A stretch of DNA of 7,140 nt from a virus. Its lineage: Duplodnaviria; Heunggongvirae; Uroviricota; Caudoviricetes. The position numbers were made by a program, and so were the translations under genes. Every line of letters starts with the position of its first letter. Position 1 is the stretch's first letter. Positions 1 to 7,140 of this stretch are shown here, one piece after another. Where the stretch lies: the IMG/VR virus record IMGVR_UViG_2778261667_000001. One strand, given 5' to 3'. The notes beneath the pieces are model-generated. The model saw only the letters and a list, made by a program, of their open reading frames with translations, had not been told where the DNA came from and ran no database searches.

Positions 1-133
1 GAGTAAAGGATCGATATGTGTTTTTTTATCATCAAATTTAGAAAAGTCTGCTTAAAAACCACCTTGTGTAACGTAAAGCCCCGTCAGCAATGCATTGCCC
101 ATCTGTGCACAAAGGAAAAATATTCCTAAATTT

Positions 134-167
134 CTAACTTTAGATAATTGGCATTATTTAAAGTTAG
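134..167. other. lox-like recombination site: 13-bp inverted arms flanking an 8-bp asymmetric spacer
   Basis: Seen in sequence: CTAACTTTAGATA (134-146), spacer ATTGGCAT (147-154), TATTTAAAGTTAG (155-167). The arms are inverted repeats matching at 12 of 13 positions. The 13+8+13 architecture is that of P1 loxP, and the arm matches the loxP arm ATAACTTCGTATA at 9 of 13 positions. It lies 152 bp upstream of the Cre-like gene, as loxP lies just upstream of cre in P1. Confidence 0.55.
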
Positions 168-175
168 GTTATAAT
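148..175 (+). promoter_or_regulatory. Candidate sigma70 promoter (-35 TTGGCA, 16-bp spacer, -10 TATAAT) overlapping the lox-like site
   Basis: Seen in sequence: TTGGCA at 148-153 (5/6 to TTGACA) and TATAAT at 170-175 (6/6), spaced 16 bp, oriented toward the recombinase gene at 319. The -35 sits inside the lox-like spacer and left edge of the right arm. Confidence 0.45.
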
Positions 176-318
176 CATGTGTAGATGAACAGTGTTGACA
201 TCACTAAAAATACGTGCATCGAATCAAAGGCTTGAATTTTGAAAATTAACTTATAGCTACCCTGTCATTTTTATATTTTTCGCGTAACGTCATCTGTATA
301 TAGAGGTTAAATAGTTTC

Positions 319-1347
319 ATGAGTGAATTAATTATCTCTGGCAGTTCCGGTGGTTTCCTGCGCAACATTGGCAAAGAGTACCAGGAGGCCGCAGAAAACT
401 TTATGCGGTTCATGAATGACCAGGGGGCTTATGCGCCGAATACTCTGCGCGACCTCCGGTTGGTGTTTCACTCCTGGGCGCGATGGTGTCACGCTCGCCA
501 GCTCGCCTGGTTCCCGATCTCACCAGAGATGGCCCGCGAGTATTTTCTTCAACTGCATGATGCCGATCTGGCTTCGACCACCATTGATAAGCACTACGCC
601 ATGCTGAATATGCTGCTTTCGCATTGTGGCCTTCCACCACTTTCGGATGATAAAAGTGTTTCTCTGGCTATGCGGCGCATCCGGCGAGAAGCAGCAACTG
701 AAAAAGGTGAACGAACAGGCCAGGCTATACCGCTGCGGTGGGACGACCTGAAACTGCTCGACGTCCTGTTGTCCAGGTCTGAACGGCTGGTAGATCTGCG
801 CAACCGGGCTTTTCTCTTTGTTGCATACAACACACTGATGCGTATGTCTGAAATCTCGCGAATTCGCGTAGGAGATCTGGATCAAACAGGTGACACTGTC
901 ACGCTACATATTTCACACACGAAGACAATAACGACCGCTGCCGGGCTTGATAAGGTGCTTTCTCGTCGCACTACCGCTGTACTGAATGACTGGCTGGAGG
1001 CTTCCGGGCTTCGTGAACATCCTGACGCGGTGCTGTTCCCGCCGATACACCGTAGCAATAAGGCCAGGATCACGATAACGCCCCTTACTGCACCTGCAAT
1101 GGAGAAAATATTCAGCGATGCCTGGGTGTTGCTGAATAAAAGAGATGCCACGCCGAACAAAGGAAGATACCGGACGTGGACAGGCCATAGTGCTCGTGTC
1201 GGGGCCGCTATCGATATGGCTGAAAAGCAGGTGTCTATGGTGGAGATCATGCAGGAAGGAACCTGGAAGAAACCGGAAACACTTATGCGGTATCTGCGCC
1301 GTGGCGGCGTGTCTGTGGGGGCTAATAGCCGCCTGATGGATTCGTAA
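319..1347 (+). CDS. Cre-family tyrosine site-specific recombinase
   Basis: The 342-aa ORF is nearly the same length as P1 Cre (343 aa) and aligns by eye along its whole length. Shared blocks include SWARWC, WFP..PE, LNML, VSLAMRRIRRE, RNRAFLFVAYNTLMRMSEISRIRVGDL, HTKT, WTGHSARVGAAIDMA, EIMQEGTW and LMRYLRR. Counterparts of Cre catalytic residues R173, K201, H289, R292, W315 and Y324 are all present. GAGG at 303-306 is a possible RBS. Confidence 0.9.
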   Translation: MSELIISGSSGGFLRNIGKEYQEAAENFMRFMNDQGAYAPNTLRDLRLVFHSWARWCHARQLAWFPISPEMAREYFLQLHDADLASTTIDKHYAMLNMLLSHCGLPPLSDDKSVSLAMRRIRREAATEKGERTGQAIPLRWDDLKLLDVLLSRSERLVDLRNRAFLFVAYNTLMRMSEISRIRVGDLDQTGDTVTLHISHTKTITTAAGLDKVLSRRTTAVLNDWLEASGLREHPDAVLFPPIHRSNKARITITPLTAPAMEKIFSDAWVLLNKRDATPNKGRYRTWTGHSARVGAAIDMAEKQVSMVEIMQEGTWKKPETLMRYLRRGGVSVGANSRLMDS

Positions 1348-1408
1348 ATTAAATTTCTAACATATCTTTTTAGATTGATATCTTTGCTGTAAAGTACCCT
1401 CGCCTATT

Positions 1409-1765
1409 TTGGAGGGTGCTTTGCAGAGTCAAATCACGGAATCAAGACGCTTCACGGTGGACGGTTACACCGTAACCTTCGCCGCTGGTGTTAAGAACAG
1501 TCATGCTGTCGTTGTATTCGGCATCATGACCGGGCTTGAGGCCGTCCCTGTATTTACCCTCGAAAAAAACTGGCGAAATCTGGAGGAAGCGGAAAGCTAT
1601 GTCCGGAAAGTAACCATCATTGCCGCCGAAAAACTCCTGGCCCACTATCAGGAAAATTATCGCACTATGGTCGAGAAAATTAATCTCGCTTTCACTCGCC
1701 CCACTACAGGCTTCATCGCCCCGGAGACTAATACAGGTCGCTATCCTGCAAGGGGTCGTCGGTGA
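1409..1765 (+). CDS. Hypothetical protein (about 114-118 aa, start codon uncertain)
   Basis: Intact ORF whose stop overlaps the next gene's GTG start (GTGA at 1762-1765). GGAGG at 1411-1415 sits 5 nt before an in-frame TTG at 1421, so the real start may be TTG 1421 or GTG 1457 rather than TTG 1409. No recognisable family. Confidence 0.5.
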   Translation: MEGALQSQITESRRFTVDGYTVTFAAGVKNSHAVVVFGIMTGLEAVPVFTLEKNWRNLEEAESYVRKVTIIAAEKLLAHYQENYRTMVEKINLAFTRPTTGFIAPETNTGRYPARGRR

Positions 1766-2238
1766 AAAATTATTACCCATCTCTGAATTGTTACCCGTCT
1801 TCGTATCCGGAATTGTCCGGGAAGCTGTTATCTCTTTTGGCTAAATCACCAACTGAATGGTTTAAGCCAGTCGTTATCAATCCACACTTCCTGGATTACG
1901 GATCTGTTCGCACTCGTAACGAACTCAAAAACCTGCTGGCGCATGGATTCATTCGACACCGTGCCGGGAAAGGCTATCAGTTAGCGATTTCGCCAGAAGA
2001 GGCCGTGCGGCTATTCGCATATCGTGACAGCCAGACAAAAGCACGGGTAATAGCTCAAATACTTCATAACGGCAGCACCTATGCCCGCCAGTTTGGCGGC
2101 GACACGTCGCAGTTCTTGCGGGCTGTGCGATCGCTGGAAGAACAAGGAGTTATTGAAAGTTCCTGTCTTCCTGTTCCTACCGTTCCACATATCAAACGTC
2201 GGGTTTACACCTTCACGCAGAGAGCTAAAAAACAATGA
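1762..2238 (+). CDS. Hypothetical protein, possible winged-helix DNA-binding protein
   Basis: 158-aa ORF with a GTG start overlapping the upstream stop and a stop overlapping the downstream ATG (ATGA at 2235-2238). Segments such as ELKNLLAHGFIRHRAGKGYQLAISPEEAVRLF and QFLRAVRSLEEQGVIES look like winged-helix recognition regions; this is inference from composition only. Confidence 0.55.
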   Translation: MKNYYPSLNCYPSSYPELSGKLLSLLAKSPTEWFKPVVINPHFLDYGSVRTRNELKNLLAHGFIRHRAGKGYQLAISPEEAVRLFAYRDSQTKARVIAQILHNGSTYARQFGGDTSQFLRAVRSLEEQGVIESSCLPVPTVPHIKRRVYTFTQRAKKQ

Positions 2239-2729
2239 TTTACGTAAAAGTGAAACGCCTACATCCGGAAGCAAAACTTCCAGCTTATGCCACTGCCGGA
2301 TCGGCGGCGATGGATTTTGAGGCTGTTGAAATAACACCGTGCGTCGATAGCAATGGTGCAATTTCCTCAAGCTGGTGGGTGCATACCGGGCTGGCTATGG
2401 AGATCCCGCCCGGCTGGTGTCTGAAACTCTATCCGCGTTCCGGATTGGGCTGCAAAAAACATACTCGCTTGGCTAACTGCGTAGGAATTATCGACTCCGA
2501 TTATCGCGGTGAAATCATGGCAAAACTGATTACTGATCCAGGCGGTGAAGGCGTTTGCCTCAAGCCGGGGATGGCGGTCATGCAAGGCATTTTTGAGCGT
2601 GTTGAACCGGTATCGCTGGTAGAAGTTGATGAACTCGATGAAACAGAACGAGGTGCTGGTGGCTTTGGTAGCACATCGGAAGGCCGCGTTGAAATCAAGC
2701 GTACACCGCTTCAGTACGCAAAGTTTTAA
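2235..2729 (+). CDS. dut: dUTP diphosphatase (trimeric dUTPase family)
   Basis: Matches conserved dUTPase motifs when compared by eye with E. coli Dut: PAYATAGSAAMDF (motif I), PRSGLG (motif II), GIIDSDYRGE (motif III) and RGAGGFGSTS (motif V). Motif V is followed by a short extra tail (EGRVEIKRTPLQYAKF). Start overlaps the upstream stop. Confidence 0.88.
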   Translation: MIYVKVKRLHPEAKLPAYATAGSAAMDFEAVEITPCVDSNGAISSSWWVHTGLAMEIPPGWCLKLYPRSGLGCKKHTRLANCVGIIDSDYRGEIMAKLITDPGGEGVCLKPGMAVMQGIFERVEPVSLVEVDELDETERGAGGFGSTSEGRVEIKRTPLQYAKF

Positions 2730-2743
2730 GTAGAGGAAGGATT

Positions 2744-3406
2744 ATGGCCAGCACTTTTCAGGTGTTCCCCAAATACAAATGCCACAGCATCATTCGGGCA
2801 TCGAAAATCAAAGATATTGTTATTGTCGGCAAAGCTTATGCGCCCATTTTTGGCAGCATCGAAGTCGTGGAGCCAAAAGGAATGACGCTTCGTGTTGATG
2901 GTGTGTTCTTGGAAAAGTTCCGACCGCAAATAGGAGGATATCTCGTCACTGCTGAAAATGGTTATCTGGTCTATGTGCCAGAGAAAGCATTTGAAAAATG
3001 CTATAGCCGGGTTAACGACGCCTCCGAAAATGGGGTATCGCTCAGCATTGAAGGTCACAATGGGGTGACATTCATTACAGCCAGGGACGTAACTATTTCT
3101 GCTGGCGGTATCGCTACTCTACAAGAAGAAATCGACCTTGAAGCAGCCGACTTTTCTGACGCGCTGATGTGGATGAAGGATGGCAAGAAAGTTGCTCGAC
3201 GCGGGTGGAACGGCGAAGACCAATTCTGCTGGCTGGTTCCTGAAGGACAGTACCCGGCACGAATGGAAGCCATTAAGGGATATTTCCCCGGCGACCTCGT
3301 TCCGTATGGTGCTTATTTCGCCTTAAAAAATGCACAAGGTGTAGTTGTTCCGTGGGTGCCTTCAGTTGGCGACCTGCTGGCCTGTGACTGGTTTGTTGTG
3401 GAGTGA
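2744..3406 (+). CDS. Two-domain hypothetical protein: unknown N-terminal domain fused to a C-terminal DUF2829-like (Tad2-type) domain
   Basis: 220-aa ORF with a good RBS (GGAAGGA at 2732-2738, ATG at 2744). The C-terminal ~80 aa (about 3161..3403) read ALMWMKDGKKVARRGWNG...PYGAYFALKNAQGVVVPWVPSVGDLLACDWFVVE. This matches the pattern I recall for small phage DUF2829 proteins (GKKV.R.GW near the start, D.LA.DW at the end). The N-terminal ~140 aa is unrecognised. Confidence 0.75.
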   Translation: MASTFQVFPKYKCHSIIRASKIKDIVIVGKAYAPIFGSIEVVEPKGMTLRVDGVFLEKFRPQIGGYLVTAENGYLVYVPEKAFEKCYSRVNDASENGVSLSIEGHNGVTFITARDVTISAGGIATLQEEIDLEAADFSDALMWMKDGKKVARRGWNGEDQFCWLVPEGQYPARMEAIKGYFPGDLVPYGAYFALKNAQGVVVPWVPSVGDLLACDWFVVE

Positions 3407-3412
3407 TTTAAC

Positions 3413-4219
3413 GTGGAAAATACCAAGAACATTCAATATCGCCTGCGTAACGGCCTGCTGGTGGATGTTAACGCTGACATGTCTCTGCCGCTCGACACGA
3501 TTGAACGCACTATCATGGCGTATCTTGGCTTTAATGAAGAGCTGAATGAAGAGCATGGCGTAGCCATATGGAGCGATGCAGACAACGGCGCTCGCCGTTA
3601 TATCACTGCCAGAGGCAAAGACTACTCTCTGGAAGAACTGTTTACCCTTGCGCAGTCTTTCGAATGTGTAGCATTGGATCTGTTTAATGATCCTGCTATA
3701 GCGCAACGACTTATCCGCGAGCTTGGGCTGTCCGTTACCCCAATCATCTTTAGAAATGGCAGCTTGACTGGCACATGGCGCGTAGAACGCATCTCAAACT
3801 ACCTTCCATATAACCGACAGTTAAATGGAGTAATCTCCGGCGTTAATCAGCCCGTAGCGTGTGAAAATGTAAACCTAGTTGTCGCTGTTTTGGCAACCGC
3901 ATGTCGCGTTATTGGTTTGACTAAACAGGCATTTATTCATTTCCCAAATGGTGCAGATGGTAGCGCAGAGATTATCGCGTGTGATTTCGAATTTACCTGG
4001 ATGCTACGAGAATATCTGGACAAAACAGTATTCCGTGCCGAAGAACTGGATATGTATATCACGTCAACGATTCCTGATGATGTGCGAGCTGAAGCAATCG
4101 CTACAGCCAGGGCTAAATGCCGTGCGGCGATTGCAGAACAGGCCAAAGAAGAACAGTCCGATGAAGTCGCGGCAGATGTGGAAGCAGAGGTAGCGGAGGA
4201 TGCTGATGCTGACGCCTAA
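3413..4219 (+). CDS. Hypothetical protein with a strongly acidic C-terminal tail
   Basis: 268-aa ORF. The first start codon in frame is GTG at 3413, two codons after the upstream TGA and in the same frame, with no obvious SD, so the start is uncertain. The last ~30 aa (EQAKEEQSDEVAADVEAEVAEDADADA) are very acidic. The 3' end overlaps the next gene by 20 nt. Confidence 0.65.
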   Translation: MENTKNIQYRLRNGLLVDVNADMSLPLDTIERTIMAYLGFNEELNEEHGVAIWSDADNGARRYITARGKDYSLEELFTLAQSFECVALDLFNDPAIAQRLIRELGLSVTPIIFRNGSLTGTWRVERISNYLPYNRQLNGVISGVNQPVACENVNLVVAVLATACRVIGLTKQAFIHFPNGADGSAEIIACDFEFTWMLREYLDKTVFRAEELDMYITSTIPDDVRAEAIATARAKCRAAIAEQAKEEQSDEVAADVEAEVAEDADADA

Positions 4220-5306
4220 AAACATCACCGAATTACCAGAGTGGAGAGAGCTGGTAAGCAAATATAGCCATGACTGGGCATTAGCAGCAGAAGAGTTGAT
4301 GGGTGTTAAGTTAACCCACCAGCAAAAGCTAATTGTTGAGGCGATTCAACAAAAAGGTTCAGCAGTCAGCGTCACCACTCCTGAAGGGATAGGCCAAAAG
4401 ACGGTTATGGCTATAATTAGTATTCTTTATACAATCCTGATGCCTGAGTCTAAAACGGTCATTGTTTCCCCAAAGTTCTATAATTGTCGCAGGCAAGTTA
4501 TCCAATACATAAGTACGTATTGGGATAGAGTCAGTAACAGAATCCCATTGCTGGGAGAATATTTTAAAGTCGACGGAAACGGCATCACTCATCGTTACCG
4601 GGAATATTGGGGCTGCGAAATTAAGCCATATCACCGAAATTATGAGGAAGGTTTCGGTGGATATTATGCTGAACATCTTTTAATCATTGTTACGGAGGCG
4701 GCTCTTGCTGGCGATCGGCTATTCAGCATGTTAAGAGCATCGTTAGTAAGTGACGATTCACGTATACTTTTAATGTCCGCTCCTTCAGAGGAGGAGCATG
4801 GACACTTTTACGATTCCCATCATGGTCGTGCAAAATCTGAAGAAAATCCATGTGGTATTTATACAGCCATCAAGTTGAACGCAGAAGATACCCCCATTAT
4901 TTCTCAAGGTTATCTTGATAACATTGCAGAAATATATGGTGGTAAAAATAGCGATTACTACCGTCGTATGGTTCTTGGTGAGTTCCCTGGTATTCGGGAG
5001 GCTGTTCTTGAATCAGATATGCCGAAAACAATGCGCTTTACGATGCATGATGGTAGTGAATGGACAATGCCATTACTAGTGATAGCCCGGCATCATGCAC
5101 AGCACCACGCCAAAAAACATGGCGTTACAACATTAGAGTGGTTGAAATCGCACACCATTCCACTCTTCACTGCAGATCACAATGCTATCGTTGAGTGGGC
5201 AAAAACAATTCCGTGGGAGAATGTCGCTGAATACGCCAACATGCTAAAACCGCCGAAAGACAGGCAAGAAATTAGCTGGCTGACAGCAGAAAAAATCATC
5301 GAGTGA
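4200..5306 (+). CDS. Terminase-large-subunit-like ASCE ATPase domain protein (no nuclease domain, divergent Walker motifs)
   Basis: 368-aa ORF; ATG 4206 is the more likely start because GGAGG at 4195-4199 sits 6 nt upstream of it. Motif order and spacing fit a terminase ATPase domain: Walker A-like PEGIGQKT (aa 61-68), Walker B-like LLIIVTE (aa 160-166), coupling motif-like LLMSAPS (aa 190-196), and YYRRMVLGEFPG near aa 253-264. The Gly before the Walker A Lys is Q and the Walker B Asp is T. The remaining ~100 aa are too short for an RNaseH-like nuclease domain and show no acidic triad. Confidence 0.7.
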   Translation: MLMLTPKNITELPEWRELVSKYSHDWALAAEELMGVKLTHQQKLIVEAIQQKGSAVSVTTPEGIGQKTVMAIISILYTILMPESKTVIVSPKFYNCRRQVIQYISTYWDRVSNRIPLLGEYFKVDGNGITHRYREYWGCEIKPYHRNYEEGFGGYYAEHLLIIVTEAALAGDRLFSMLRASLVSDDSRILLMSAPSEEEHGHFYDSHHGRAKSEENPCGIYTAIKLNAEDTPIISQGYLDNIAEIYGGKNSDYYRRMVLGEFPGIREAVLESDMPKTMRFTMHDGSEWTMPLLVIARHHAQHHAKKHGVTTLEWLKSHTIPLFTADHNAIVEWAKTIPWENVAEYANMLKPPKDRQEISWLTAEKIIE

Positions 5307-5310
5307 TAGT

Positions 5311-5342
5311 AAAAAGCCCGCCTGGTTGAGCGGGCTTTTTTA
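5311..5342. terminator. Bidirectional Rho-independent terminator
   Basis: Seen in sequence: AAAAA-GCCCGC-ctggttga-GCGGGC-TTTTTT. A 6-bp GC stem with an 8-nt loop is flanked by an A-tract and a T-tract, 5 nt after the stop of the 4200..5306 gene, between convergent blocks. Confidence 0.75.
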
Positions 5343-5498
5343 TGCGCCTTAAATCACAGGTCTATCATCAAACATCAACTGGAATGAGTGAGGAATCGAC
5401 CACAAGCAACGCCCCTTGCAATATGCCTTCGCGGTTTTCGAGTAAACAACTTAGCGCGGAATCAGTATTCGCCACAAGATGTAAAAAGTCCACCAGTG

Positions 5499-5765
5499 TT
5501 ATGGTTCGCATTTCCATATGGTGTTCTGAACGCCAGTACCGGGCGCGAGATGGGGGTTAGCGTTCGCGCTATGCTGATATACGGCTTTAGACTTTCCATA
5601 TTGCTGACAGGCTTTATCTGCGGTTTTTTGCAGGCTATCCAGCCCATACCAGCCATCTGACTGGATGCTTACCTTTTCACCGTCATTGTATTGCACCATC
5701 GCACACCCAGATATAGCCAGTATCGCGCCGACAATAACGCTATTCCATAAAACTCTATGCAACAT
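5499..5765 (-). CDS. Small putative lipoprotein (about 88 aa)
   Basis: Taking ATG at 5765 as start, the N-terminus MLHRVLWNSVIVGAILAISGCA has a basic n-region, a hydrophobic core and a lipobox-like ISGC. The mature part would be ~65 aa with two more Cys. The ORF track start at 5771 is a TTG two codons upstream. Confidence 0.5.
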   Translation of the reverse strand: MLHRVLWNSVIVGAILAISGCAMVQYNDGEKVSIQSDGWYGLDSLQKTADKACQQYGKSKAVYQHSANANPHLAPGTGVQNTIWKCEP

Positions 5766-5769
5766 ATAC

Positions 5770-5800
5770 AAAAATCCCCTCTGTGAATTGAGGGGATTTT
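5770..5800 (-). terminator. Hairpin with T-tract, candidate intrinsic terminator or attenuator for minus-strand transcription
   Basis: Seen in sequence, plus strand: AAAATCCCCTC-tgtgaatt-GAGGGGATTTT (11-bp perfect stem with a 7-bp GC-rich core). On the minus strand the stem is followed by TTTTTGTAT and then the ATG at 5765, so the 3' half (GAGGGGA) could also serve as that gene's SD. Confidence 0.5.
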
Positions 5801-5834
5801 AGCATGGTGATCAGATATCAGCTTTATCCGGAAT

Positions 5835-6587
5835 TTAATCAGCCTCCAGTGGCAATAACGCCTTAGCCATTTCATGAATCAGCATGGCATCAATGACGCC
5901 TAGCGTATGGCCCGGCTTAATCTTTAATGCGGCCTCAAGATAGCCTCTTTCCAGAGTGGTTTTTACGCTTTTCCTGGGCGCTTGTTGGGAACTATCCGGA
6001 AGATCCGGATGGTTGCCAGCCTCATAAGCTACCCGCAACCAGTGCATGAATGTTTCCGCAGACACACAACCGCAGTCCACATCAATTTCCCCGCGTTGCT
6101 GTTCCAGCCATTGCTCAAAATCTAACTTGTAAGCCTTACTTTCAAGTTCATCACCATTGGACTTGACTTTCTGAGACGCTATGCGAGCTGCTTCATACTG
6201 TTCACGAGTGACAACCGATGTAAACGCACTGCGATCAAGGTCACTGATATCGCAAATAATGCCATCCAAGGAATAATTCTTTGATGATTGGTAATTTTTA
6301 TGGCGCGTACCAAAAAGAACCATAGCGCGACTACTACCTGGCATCGTAATGGATAGATGGCAAAAATCTTTTCCATCAGGCCATCCACGCCCCTTAGATA
6401 ATTCCTTCACTAACAAGTCAATCAGTGTCATAGCGTTACCATCCTTGCAAGGCGCTAAAGCTATTTTGGCAAGCTCCAATACGTCATCTGCTGTGTATCC
6501 AGCACCGTGACCATACATTTCGATACGGGAAATAATATCTGAAATACGCTCTTTAGTGATTCTTGTCATAGTTTTATTTCCTTGCAT
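5835..6587 (-). CDS. Hypothetical protein (244-250 aa)
   Basis: Long intact minus-strand ORF. Both ATG 6587 (AAGG 5-6 nt upstream) and ATG 6569 (AAGGAAA upstream, overlapping the upstream stop as ATGA) are plausible starts. No recognisable family. Confidence 0.7.
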   Translation of the reverse strand: MQGNKTMTRITKERISDIISRIEMYGHGAGYTADDVLELAKIALAPCKDGNAMTLIDLLVKELSKGRGWPDGKDFCHLSITMPGSSRAMVLFGTRHKNYQSSKNYSLDGIICDISDLDRSAFTSVVTREQYEAARIASQKVKSNGDELESKAYKLDFEQWLEQQRGEIDVDCGCVSAETFMHWLRVAYEAGNHPDLPDSSQQAPRKSVKTTLERGYLEAALKIKPGHTLGVIDAMLIHEMAKALLPLEAD

Positions 6588-6775
6588 GGTTCGCCTTTAC
6601 GGCAAACAGCTACACGGTCATTTCTTACATTAACCACAGTCACCGTTCCGTCATCGCATTGAATAACGATGAAAGGGTGTTCATTCTCTTTTGTGCAATG
6701 TTGCTGTTCCCCTGCTGTAACAGTGAGGGGGATTAATAAAATCATAATTACTGCGAATTTACTAAATGTTGCCAT
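6566..6775 (-). CDS. Small secreted or periplasmic protein with signal peptide and four Cys
   Basis: 69-aa ORF. The N-terminus MATFSKFAVIMILLIPLTVTAG looks like a Sec signal peptide. The ~47-aa mature part has four Cys (HCTKE, IQCDD, AVCRK, EPCKE). Its stop is coupled to the next gene's possible start. Confidence 0.5.
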   Translation of the reverse strand: MATFSKFAVIMILLIPLTVTAGEQQHCTKENEHPFIVIQCDDGTVTVVNVRNDRVAVCRKGEPCKEIKL

Positions 6776-6799
6776 AGCAATCTTTCTTTCTGTTTTTCA

Positions 6800-7093
6800 T
6801 TATGGTTGAATCCAGTTATCTTCAATAGCAATGCTCAATCTTTGTAACCATTCTGCTAATTTCAGCATTGCTTCTCTTTCGCTTAAACCACACGGAAAAT
6901 CATCAAGCGATATTGTTGGCTTGAAGTTTCCCAAATTATCCATTTCAACGGTCAGATTTTGCTCCAGAACGGTATTTCTTACGCGGCTATTGTGCCGAAG
7001 CAAATATACTGAACGTGATTTATTGGTTTTGTGGTCGAACGTATATTCGGTAAGTATCATCTGGCTTCCGCCATGATTATTACCGCGCCACAT
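6800..7093 (-). CDS. Hypothetical protein (86-97 aa)
   Basis: Intact ORF at the head of the minus-strand cluster. Possible starts are ATG 7093 (GGGG 5 nt upstream) or ATG 7060 (GGAAG upstream). No recognisable family. Confidence 0.5.
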   Translation of the reverse strand: MWRGNNHGGSQMILTEYTFDHKTNKSRSVYLLRHNSRVRNTVLEQNLTVEMDNLGNFKPTISLDDFPCGLSEREAMLKLAEWLQRLSIAIEDNWIQP

Positions 7094-7140
7094 AATTACC
7101 CCGTGTTAATTGAAATTTATCTATTGATCTTCACCTTTAT

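Follow-up and report, generated by a model that had tools for sequence, protein, structure and literature searches.

In P1-like phage-plasmids, the segment pmgT-pmgU-pmgV-upf-hot-lxr-humD has been described as one of eight hypervariable regions of low guanine-cytosine (GC) content (PMC9603915), and the P1 genes pmgT, pmgU, and pmgV were non-essential both by CRISPR interference (CRISPRi) and by deletion (PMC10695390). In P1, the corresponding slot holds pmgT-pmgU-pmgV-upfMNO-hot-lxr-humD under C1-controlled promoters (OpmgT). A further known region is the exo-xis/ea region of lambdoid and Shiga toxin (Stx) phages, which includes Ea22, EaA, and orf60a-63. Two reports present Ea22 as modular, early-expressed, and prolysogenic (PMC7093339, PMC10834534), and in part of the literature the exo-xis/ea genes are described as non-essential modulators of development. 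Here, a stretch of 7,140 nucleotides (nt) from the IMG/VR virus record IMGVR_UViG_2778261667_000001 (Caudoviricetes), referred to as the window, was analyzed with respect to three minus-strand genes at positions 5835-7093, whose products are 97, 69, and 244 amino acids (aa) long. A sequence-only reading had taken them for a compact three-gene cluster, with toxin/immunity, superinfection exclusion, or anti-phage roles as examples of what such cargo often encodes. The three genes are instead likely to be consecutive, independently exchangeable cassettes in a long accessory array, not a functional module.

The following features were located in the window:

7117-7140, minus strand, 3' end of an ASCH-domain gene (TAA stop at 7119-7117); the array extends past the window end
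6800-7093, minus strand, 97-aa gene, from the six-frame list of open reading frames (ORFs)
6566-6775, minus strand, 69-aa gene (ORF), with a predicted signal peptide at 6713-6775 and the mature 48-aa part at 6569-6712
5835-6569, minus strand, 244-aa gene; an alternative in-frame start at 6587 gives a 250-aa ORF (5835-6587)
6566-6569, minus strand, ATGA stop/start overlap of the 69-aa and 244-aa genes
5771-5800, minus strand, terminator-like hairpin (11-bp stem and T run) directly 3' of the 244-aa gene
5499-5765, minus strand, 88-aa lipoprotein gene (lipobox AISG↓C; phrog_7757), the fourth minus-strand gene of the same array
5370-5435, unstranded, 66-bp remnant of humD (S24 peptidase/UmuD-like), with 80-83% identity to the interior of the coding sequence (CDS) in the relatives L001 and L021
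5310-5340, unstranded, GC-rich hairpin between A and T runs, read as a bidirectional terminator between the convergent blocks
319-1347, plus strand, gene for a Dre tyrosine recombinase homolog (~94-95% identity to phage D6), preceded by the rox crossover region (window 131-1347 in all)

The apparent three-gene cluster is an artifact of the window edge. The compact delimitation given by the sequence-only reading did not hold, as the window ends within the ASCH gene, a lipoprotein gene follows downstream, and the nearest annotated relatives, L001 and L021 (the latter at 97.4% identity), carry an array of ~29 co-directional genes over ~12 kb with many 4-nt overlaps. There, the array begins beside ref, a gene transcribed in the divergent direction. 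Its same-strand genes upstream of the three include ASCH, eaa, DUF551, DUF4014, ead/Ea22-like, PAPS-reductase-family, and DUF968 genes and genes for a metallophosphoesterase, a DUF4752 protein, a DNA-binding protein, and a DUF4406 protein. The ASCH CDS ends 23 nt before the 97-aa gene (L001 9604-9882; L021 15022-15321), the three genes lie near the promoter-distal end, and beyond the lipoprotein gene the array runs into hot and/or humD and phd-doc. Spacers of 23-24 nt, plus the one ATGA overlap, separate the genes in the order ASCH, 97 aa, 69 aa, and 244 aa. In sister plasmids, humD together with hot or phd-doc sits between the lipoprotein gene and a plus-strand 368-aa gene. These genes are gone from the window, and the humD remnant at 5370-5435 therefore indicates a deletion scar.

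Judged by synteny, the cluster is part of an array that fills the published hypervariable pmgT-humD slot ('region 8'). Likeness to region 8 of P1-like elements was seen in position (the slot lies upstream of hot, humD, and phd-doc in the relatives, and a humD remnant is retained in the window), in organization (small genes packed co-directionally in a variable, low-GC, non-essential region), and in homology, with P1 PmgU being homologous to the C-terminal module of the 244-aa protein. In contrast to P1, the present element carries Dre in place of Cre, its repressor differs, and P1 C1 operators are absent. The slot is expanded to ~29 genes of lambdoid-type content in the D6-like relatives, and P1 itself has no homolog of the 97-aa or the 69-aa gene.

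By gene content, the array is best explained as corresponding, in a phage-plasmid, to the early-left exo-xis/ea region of lambdoid phages. Homologs of the 97-aa gene occupy the early-left position just before xis-int in lambdoid prophages, mosaic modular proteins occur in both settings (one module of the 244-aa protein is common to proteins annotated as EaA, Ea22, or DUF551), and Ead/Ea22-like, eaa, and DUF551 genes are neighbors of the three genes in the array. The present case differs in that the 244-aa protein has no match to the Pfam family Ead_Ea22 and in that the carrier is a plasmid prophage and not an integrating lambdoid phage.

The source element is, by sequence similarity, a D6/P1-like phage-plasmid. 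Window positions 151-4176 are 94% identical to phage D6 and include the Dre recombinase gene and a rox site, and the presence of Dre/rox at 131-1347 identifies a D6-like element, not P1 proper. The region 5835-7093 matched ~430 plasmids in PLSDB, nearly all of them non-mobilizable ~90-kb elements of Escherichia or Salmonella, while partial matches were found to the Punavirus genomes SJ46 and RCS47 and to P1 variants.

The three ORFs are genuine protein-coding genes. The minus-strand ORFs of 97, 69, and 250 aa reported earlier were all recovered in the six-frame list. Comparison with diverged homologs gave ratios of nonsynonymous to synonymous substitution (dN/dS) of 0.22-0.36 across all three genes (0.23 for the 97-aa gene, 0.22-0.36 for the 69-aa gene, and 0.29 for the 244-aa gene), which indicates purifying selection. 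A reading of the three as spurious ORFs was dropped, as these ratios are well under 1. Read on the minus strand, the 69-aa gene ends in ...GAA ATA AAA CTA TGA, and the ATG of the ATGA (6569-6567) is the in-frame Met7 of the 250-aa ORF, so the proposed joining of the 69-aa stop to an in-frame start was borne out. Across 33 aligned homologs, the conserved N-terminus is MTRITKERIS, and the residues before it are variable or missing. Because conservation begins at Met7, the likely product is 244 aa long with its start at 6569.

Co-occurrence of the genes was estimated from query coverage in tblastn searches of PLSDB with concatenated queries. The 69-aa and 244-aa query matched 644 records (44 at ≥80% query coverage), and the 97-aa and 69-aa query matched 492 (54 at ≥80%). 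From these, the 97-aa gene was estimated to occur in ~370 plasmids, some 244-aa module in ~520, and the trio in ~44-54. The co-occurrence across genomes that the sequence-only reading had proposed to check was thus confined to ~44-54 plasmids and largely failed beyond them. The carriers of the trio are all closely related phage-plasmids, which indicates synteny by descent. As judged from these distributions, the 97-aa, 69-aa, and 244-aa families are independently distributed.

These results bear directly on the proposal of a self-contained cargo module, in which the 69-aa and 250-aa products would form a toxin/immunity or toxin-antitoxin pair, or the three genes together an anti-phage defense carried by a prophage. 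The ATGA overlap would allow translational coupling of the 69-aa and 244-aa genes, the region is variable and of lower GC content, and within the phage-plasmid contexts examined a 244-aa-family gene always comes straight after the 69-aa gene, the two overlapping by 4 nt. The 244-aa family, on the other hand, is mostly preceded by genes other than the 69-aa gene with the same 4-nt overlap. For example, SJ46 and RCS47 carry an unrelated 124-aa gene in the 69-aa slot that overlaps the PmgU-like gene in this way, and the same overlap onto a 244-aa-family gene was also found in L009-L013. Such recurrence with other upstream genes makes the overlap a property of the array and not of a specific pair, and a functional meaning of the ATGA was dropped for this reason. 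The pairing of the 69-aa and 244-aa genes appears to reflect shared position and not mutual dependence. Additionally, the 69-aa family occurs without a 244-aa relative on ~122 IncI2 plasmids, in P2-like prophages, and in a jumbo phage, so that the obligate co-occurrence expected of a toxin pair was absent in PLSDB and in the P2-like prophages, and the 97-aa family is found in unrelated neighborhoods. No toxin or antitoxin domain was identified in the three proteins by Pfam, NCBIfam, PADLOC, or PDB searches, no PADLOC-DB v2 defense model matched them or the 88-aa lipoprotein, and PDB profile searches with all three alignments returned nothing at E < 0.4. The predicted products belong to different compartments (periplasm versus cytoplasm), and the homologous P1 genes are non-essential with no toxicity reported for them (PMC10695390). 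A cargo module of this kind is therefore considered very improbable, and the toxin/immunity or defense function proposed earlier was not borne out: no toxin-antitoxin or defense model matched, the partners are separable, and their predicted locations differ. Of the cargo interpretation, what stood is the placement of non-core accessory genes in a part of a temperate element that varies and is slightly richer in AT; the discrete functional unit did not stand. The statement that none of the products belongs to a recognized family held for Pfam, NCBIfam, and PADLOC, while all three products matched catalogued PHROGs.

Each of the three families has its own distribution. The 69-aa protein matched phrog_20764 over its full length (positions 1-69 of 69, E-value 5.3e-52). 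The signal peptide and four Cys noted earlier are present as sequence features, and the family conserves the AxA↓G site as well as the Cys. The N-terminal region includes K6, a 13-residue hydrophobic core, and a VTA↓GEQ cleavage site, with a maximum Kyte-Doolittle value of 3.09 (11-residue window). Among aligned homologs, the N-terminus is variable in sequence, always hydrophobic, and ends in A-x-A↓G. The residues C27, C40, C58, and C64 are near-invariant in close homologs, and the mature part carries the family motif (I/V)(T/I)QCDDGTVTVVNV and the conserved motif TQCDDGTVTVV. A profile search of 1.84 billion representatives recovered only 25 remote clusters, in none of which a Pfam domain was found; all 16 of the 16 small remote members examined (66-109 aa) have a signal peptide and four equivalent Cys. 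Lipoprotein status was considered for the 69-aa protein and dropped, as there is no lipobox. The precursor is predicted to be Sec-exported and cut after VTA21 by signal peptidase I, and the mature product would presumably be a 48-residue, beta-rich periplasmic miniprotein with two disulfides, a predicted mass of 5.4 kDa, and the N-terminus GEQQH.

The 69-aa family is widely distributed among mobile elements. By tblastn, it matched 173 PLSDB records, which comprised ~50 phage-plasmids and ~122 conjugative IncI2 (mcr-1-type) plasmids. The IncI2 homolog is ~70% identical to the 69-aa protein (L014 4547-4762, pmcr1_IncI2; L015 5001-5216). In pmcr1_IncI2, it lies among small genes directly upstream of type IV secretion system genes and the gene for an EexN entry-exclusion lipoprotein, and this IncI2 setting is without a 244-aa relative. 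In P2-like prophages (L017-L020, gene 5001-5201), a 66-aa member sits between gpA and the portal gene, a slot that is a cargo/defense hotspot of P2-like phages. Its neighbors are ParM/StbA, StbB-like, SSB, and Ead/Ea22 genes, again without a 244-aa partner. A further member was found in the Erwinia jumbo phage AH06. The P2-like hotspot and the IncI2 transfer region are thus both accessory positions occupied by 69-aa homologs, but the neighbors differ in each context and no common partner gene is shared, and by its distribution the 69-aa gene appears to be an autonomous single-gene cassette.

Phages are known to encode periplasmic superinfection-exclusion proteins, such as T4 Spackle and P1 Sim, which are Sec-exported, non-essential, and act in the periplasm. 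The 69-aa product resembles them in being phage-encoded and predicted to be Sec-exported, but its mature form is much smaller (48 residues with four Cys) and the family also occurs on conjugative plasmids. Predicted export, carriage by mobile elements, and the IncI2 position near EexN provide a circumstantial exclusion-related context. A role of the family as a stand-alone periplasmic factor in mobile-element conflicts, for example by blocking the entry of competing phages or plasmids or by neutralizing an attack on the envelope, is proposed only as a doubtful possibility. Some sister phage-plasmids contain two extra genes between the 97-aa and 69-aa genes (L009 4230-4911), which encode proteins of 128 and 101 aa. 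Local translations of both are hydrophobic with membrane-like segments, suggesting membrane proteins and thus an enrichment of the distal array end in envelope-directed small proteins.

The 244-aa protein demonstrated mosaicism at the level of modules. Distinct PHROGs matched distinct segments of the protein, and its 993 homologs range from 156 to 381 aa, with many covering only 31-49% of the query. In tblastn searches against phage genomes, residues 4-38 matched T1-like and other siphoviruses; residues 144-200 matched proteins annotated as EaA, Ea22, or DUF551 in Stx/lambdoid phages, as well as Klebsiella myoviruses; and residues 167-241 matched P1 pmgT/pmgU and P7 upf89.5/90.5. Four modules were delimited:

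Residues 1-45, module A, from the alignment
Residues 50-140, module B, in three or more unrelated versions, or missing
Residues 143-190, module C, LDFEQWLEQQRGKIDVDCGCVS...HWLRVAYEAGN, common to EaA/Ea22/DUF551 proteins
Residues 200-244, module D, LERGYLEAALKIKPGHTLGVIDAML, P1 PmgU-like

Some homologs additionally carry an optional PmgU-N-like insert between modules C and D or optional C-terminal extensions. Module D shares 65% identity with P1 PmgU over 51 aa (E-value 2e-17 in a small local database; tblastn E-value 1e-12). Only the C-terminal module of PmgU (111 aa) is matched, and its N-terminal module is absent from the window protein. Blocks of DNA identity between the window and sister plasmids break at the module borders of the 244-aa gene and at the gene border at 6800, and a further break at ~6716 coincides with the junction of signal peptide and mature part in the 69-aa protein. 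The 250-aa protein had no match to any Pfam family even at E ≤ 0.1, Ead_Ea22 (PF13935) included, and a Foldseek search of the AlphaFold2 (AF2) model of the 244-aa protein against PDB gave no match at E ≤ 0.001. The protein has neither a signal peptide nor a membrane segment; it is probably cytoplasmic and is best explained as a largely helical mosaic of four exchangeable modules. It represents a clean case of module-level mosaicism that links P1 PmgU to lambdoid Ea-type proteins, and this link supports viewing the pmgT-humD array of P1/D6 as accessory and exo-xis-like, not as 'morphogenetic'.

A role in virion morphogenesis is nevertheless implied by inherited names. Some 244-aa homologs carry the UniRef label 'Morphogenetic protein', gp050 of RCS47 is annotated as a 'putative morphogenetic protein', and the C-terminal module is PmgU-like. 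However, the P1 'pmg' label only means putative, and plaques still form when pmgT, pmgU, and pmgV are silenced by CRISPRi or deleted (PMC10695390). Phage-plasmids that are otherwise conserved may also have the region, lack it, or carry a mosaic of it (PMC9603915), and modules are shared with non-structural Ea-type proteins. Hence, it is hardly credible that the three genes serve morphogenesis.

The 97-aa protein matched phrog_1258 over its full length (positions 1-97 of 97, E-value 1.7e-48), with no significant match in Pfam, NCBIfam, or PADLOC. Its homologs formed 96 clusters in which the length is strictly 97 aa down to ~52-65% identity, and the family alignment contains 23 invariant columns. 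Diverged homologs were found in Klebsiella, Citrobacter, Salmonella, Raoultella, and Symbiopectobacterium, in many cases on contigs of megabase size. For example, in Citrobacter prophages the homolog is part of the early-left operon, which leads from an S24 repressor in the direction of xis and int. In such S24-repressor chromosomal lambdoid prophages, it is located three genes upstream of xis and int. Downstream of the Citrobacter homolog are a dATP/dGTP pyrophosphohydrolase gene and then an Rv2179c-like exonuclease gene, and this neighborhood is without relatives of the 69-aa or 244-aa genes. Structure prediction, proposed by the sequence-only reading as a check, was usable for the 97-aa protein (mean predicted local distance difference test, pLDDT, of 79) and too poor for the 244-aa protein (pLDDT 52.7). 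In the AF2 model of the 97-aa protein, a beta-meander of four strands packs onto a long helix at the C-terminus. Hydrophobic segments are absent, and the protein is probably a cytoplasmic alpha+beta protein.

Under the cassette reading, transcription would enter the three genes from an upstream promoter outside the window, as suggested by the ref-adjacent array start in the relatives, would proceed in the order ASCH, 97 aa, 69 aa, and 244 aa, and would stop or be attenuated at the hairpin at 5800-5771. A promoter scan of 5200-7140 found no sigma-70-like site on the minus strand. An Rfam scan of the same interval found no match inside the cluster, and only sub-threshold matches to leader terminators at the terminator. 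By analogy with P1 pmgT/U/V, the genes would provide non-essential accessory functions. More speculatively, the 97-aa and 244-aa proteins might resemble Ea22/exo-xis proteins in modulating the physiology of host or phage soon after derepression, and the miniprotein might act alone at the envelope, with entry exclusion or protection of the envelope as examples.

Several observations weigh against this reading. What suggests early, repressor-controlled expression is solely the synteny with P1 OpmgT, and the P1 C1 operator consensus (ATTGCTCTAATAAATTT-like) had no match at ≤3 mismatches in the window or in L016 and none at ≤2 mismatches in L001. Its absence is consistent with a different repressor in D6-like elements, and control of the D6-like array by its own repressor is possible. 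The analogy to Ea22 appears positional and modular and is not one of family membership, and the AF2 model of the 244-aa protein is poor, with moderate confidence confined to module B. The constant succession of the 69-aa gene and a 244-aa-family gene in the phage-plasmids also leaves some room for a local functional link between the two.

The question of regulation also bears on the possibility that the genes act in early counter-defense, in which at least one of the three proteins would inhibit host immunity in the course of infection or following derepression. Anti-defense loci are typically hypervariable arrays of small mosaic genes like this one, the convergent block of the window also holds a Tad2-like DUF2829 gene, and the C1-controlled promoter of the homologous P1 operon implies expression on derepression. 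However, the C1 consensus is absent from the window and from D6-like loci, and inhibitors of cytoplasmic immunity are not usually exported miniproteins. Counter-defense is regarded as unlikely.

The locus is a slice of a published variable region, and its families are already catalogued as PHROGs and as RefSeq hypothetical proteins. A candidate 'system' can thus be struck off as a window-truncated slice of a known hypervariable region. The residual novelty lies in the four-Cys miniprotein family on mobile elements, including IncI2 mcr-1 plasmids, through which this secreted family is extremely common and yet completely uncharacterized.

The lower GC content attributed to the cluster was confirmed at a modest scale. 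The contrast is real, with 43.0% at 5835-7093 compared with 48.5% in the plus-strand block and 46.5% in the entire window, and GC content falls to ~40% in the 97-aa and 69-aa genes. However, the plus-strand 368-aa gene is likewise at 43%.

Among the flanking genes, the 88-aa lipoprotein is 97% identical to an 88-aa protein of L009 and is an annotated CDS in L001. A possible extended -10 element (TGcTAAAAT) was noted at ~5807-5799 just upstream of its gene, and this gene, immediately past the hairpin at 5800-5771, may be transcribed from a promoter of its own.

In the convergent plus-strand block, the C-terminal half of a 220-aa protein (2744-3406, plus strand) matched the Pfam Tad2-like/DUF2829 family (E-value 2.7e-22, 79.5 bits against a cutoff of 25). 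Through this Thoeris anti-defense 2-like domain, the protein is a candidate homolog of anti-Thoeris sponges. Additionally, the 368-aa protein (4200-5306, plus strand; phrog_5902) showed a weak likeness to terminase large subunits (phrog_2, E-value 3e-10; TIGR01547, well under its cutoff), at a position outside the packaging module.

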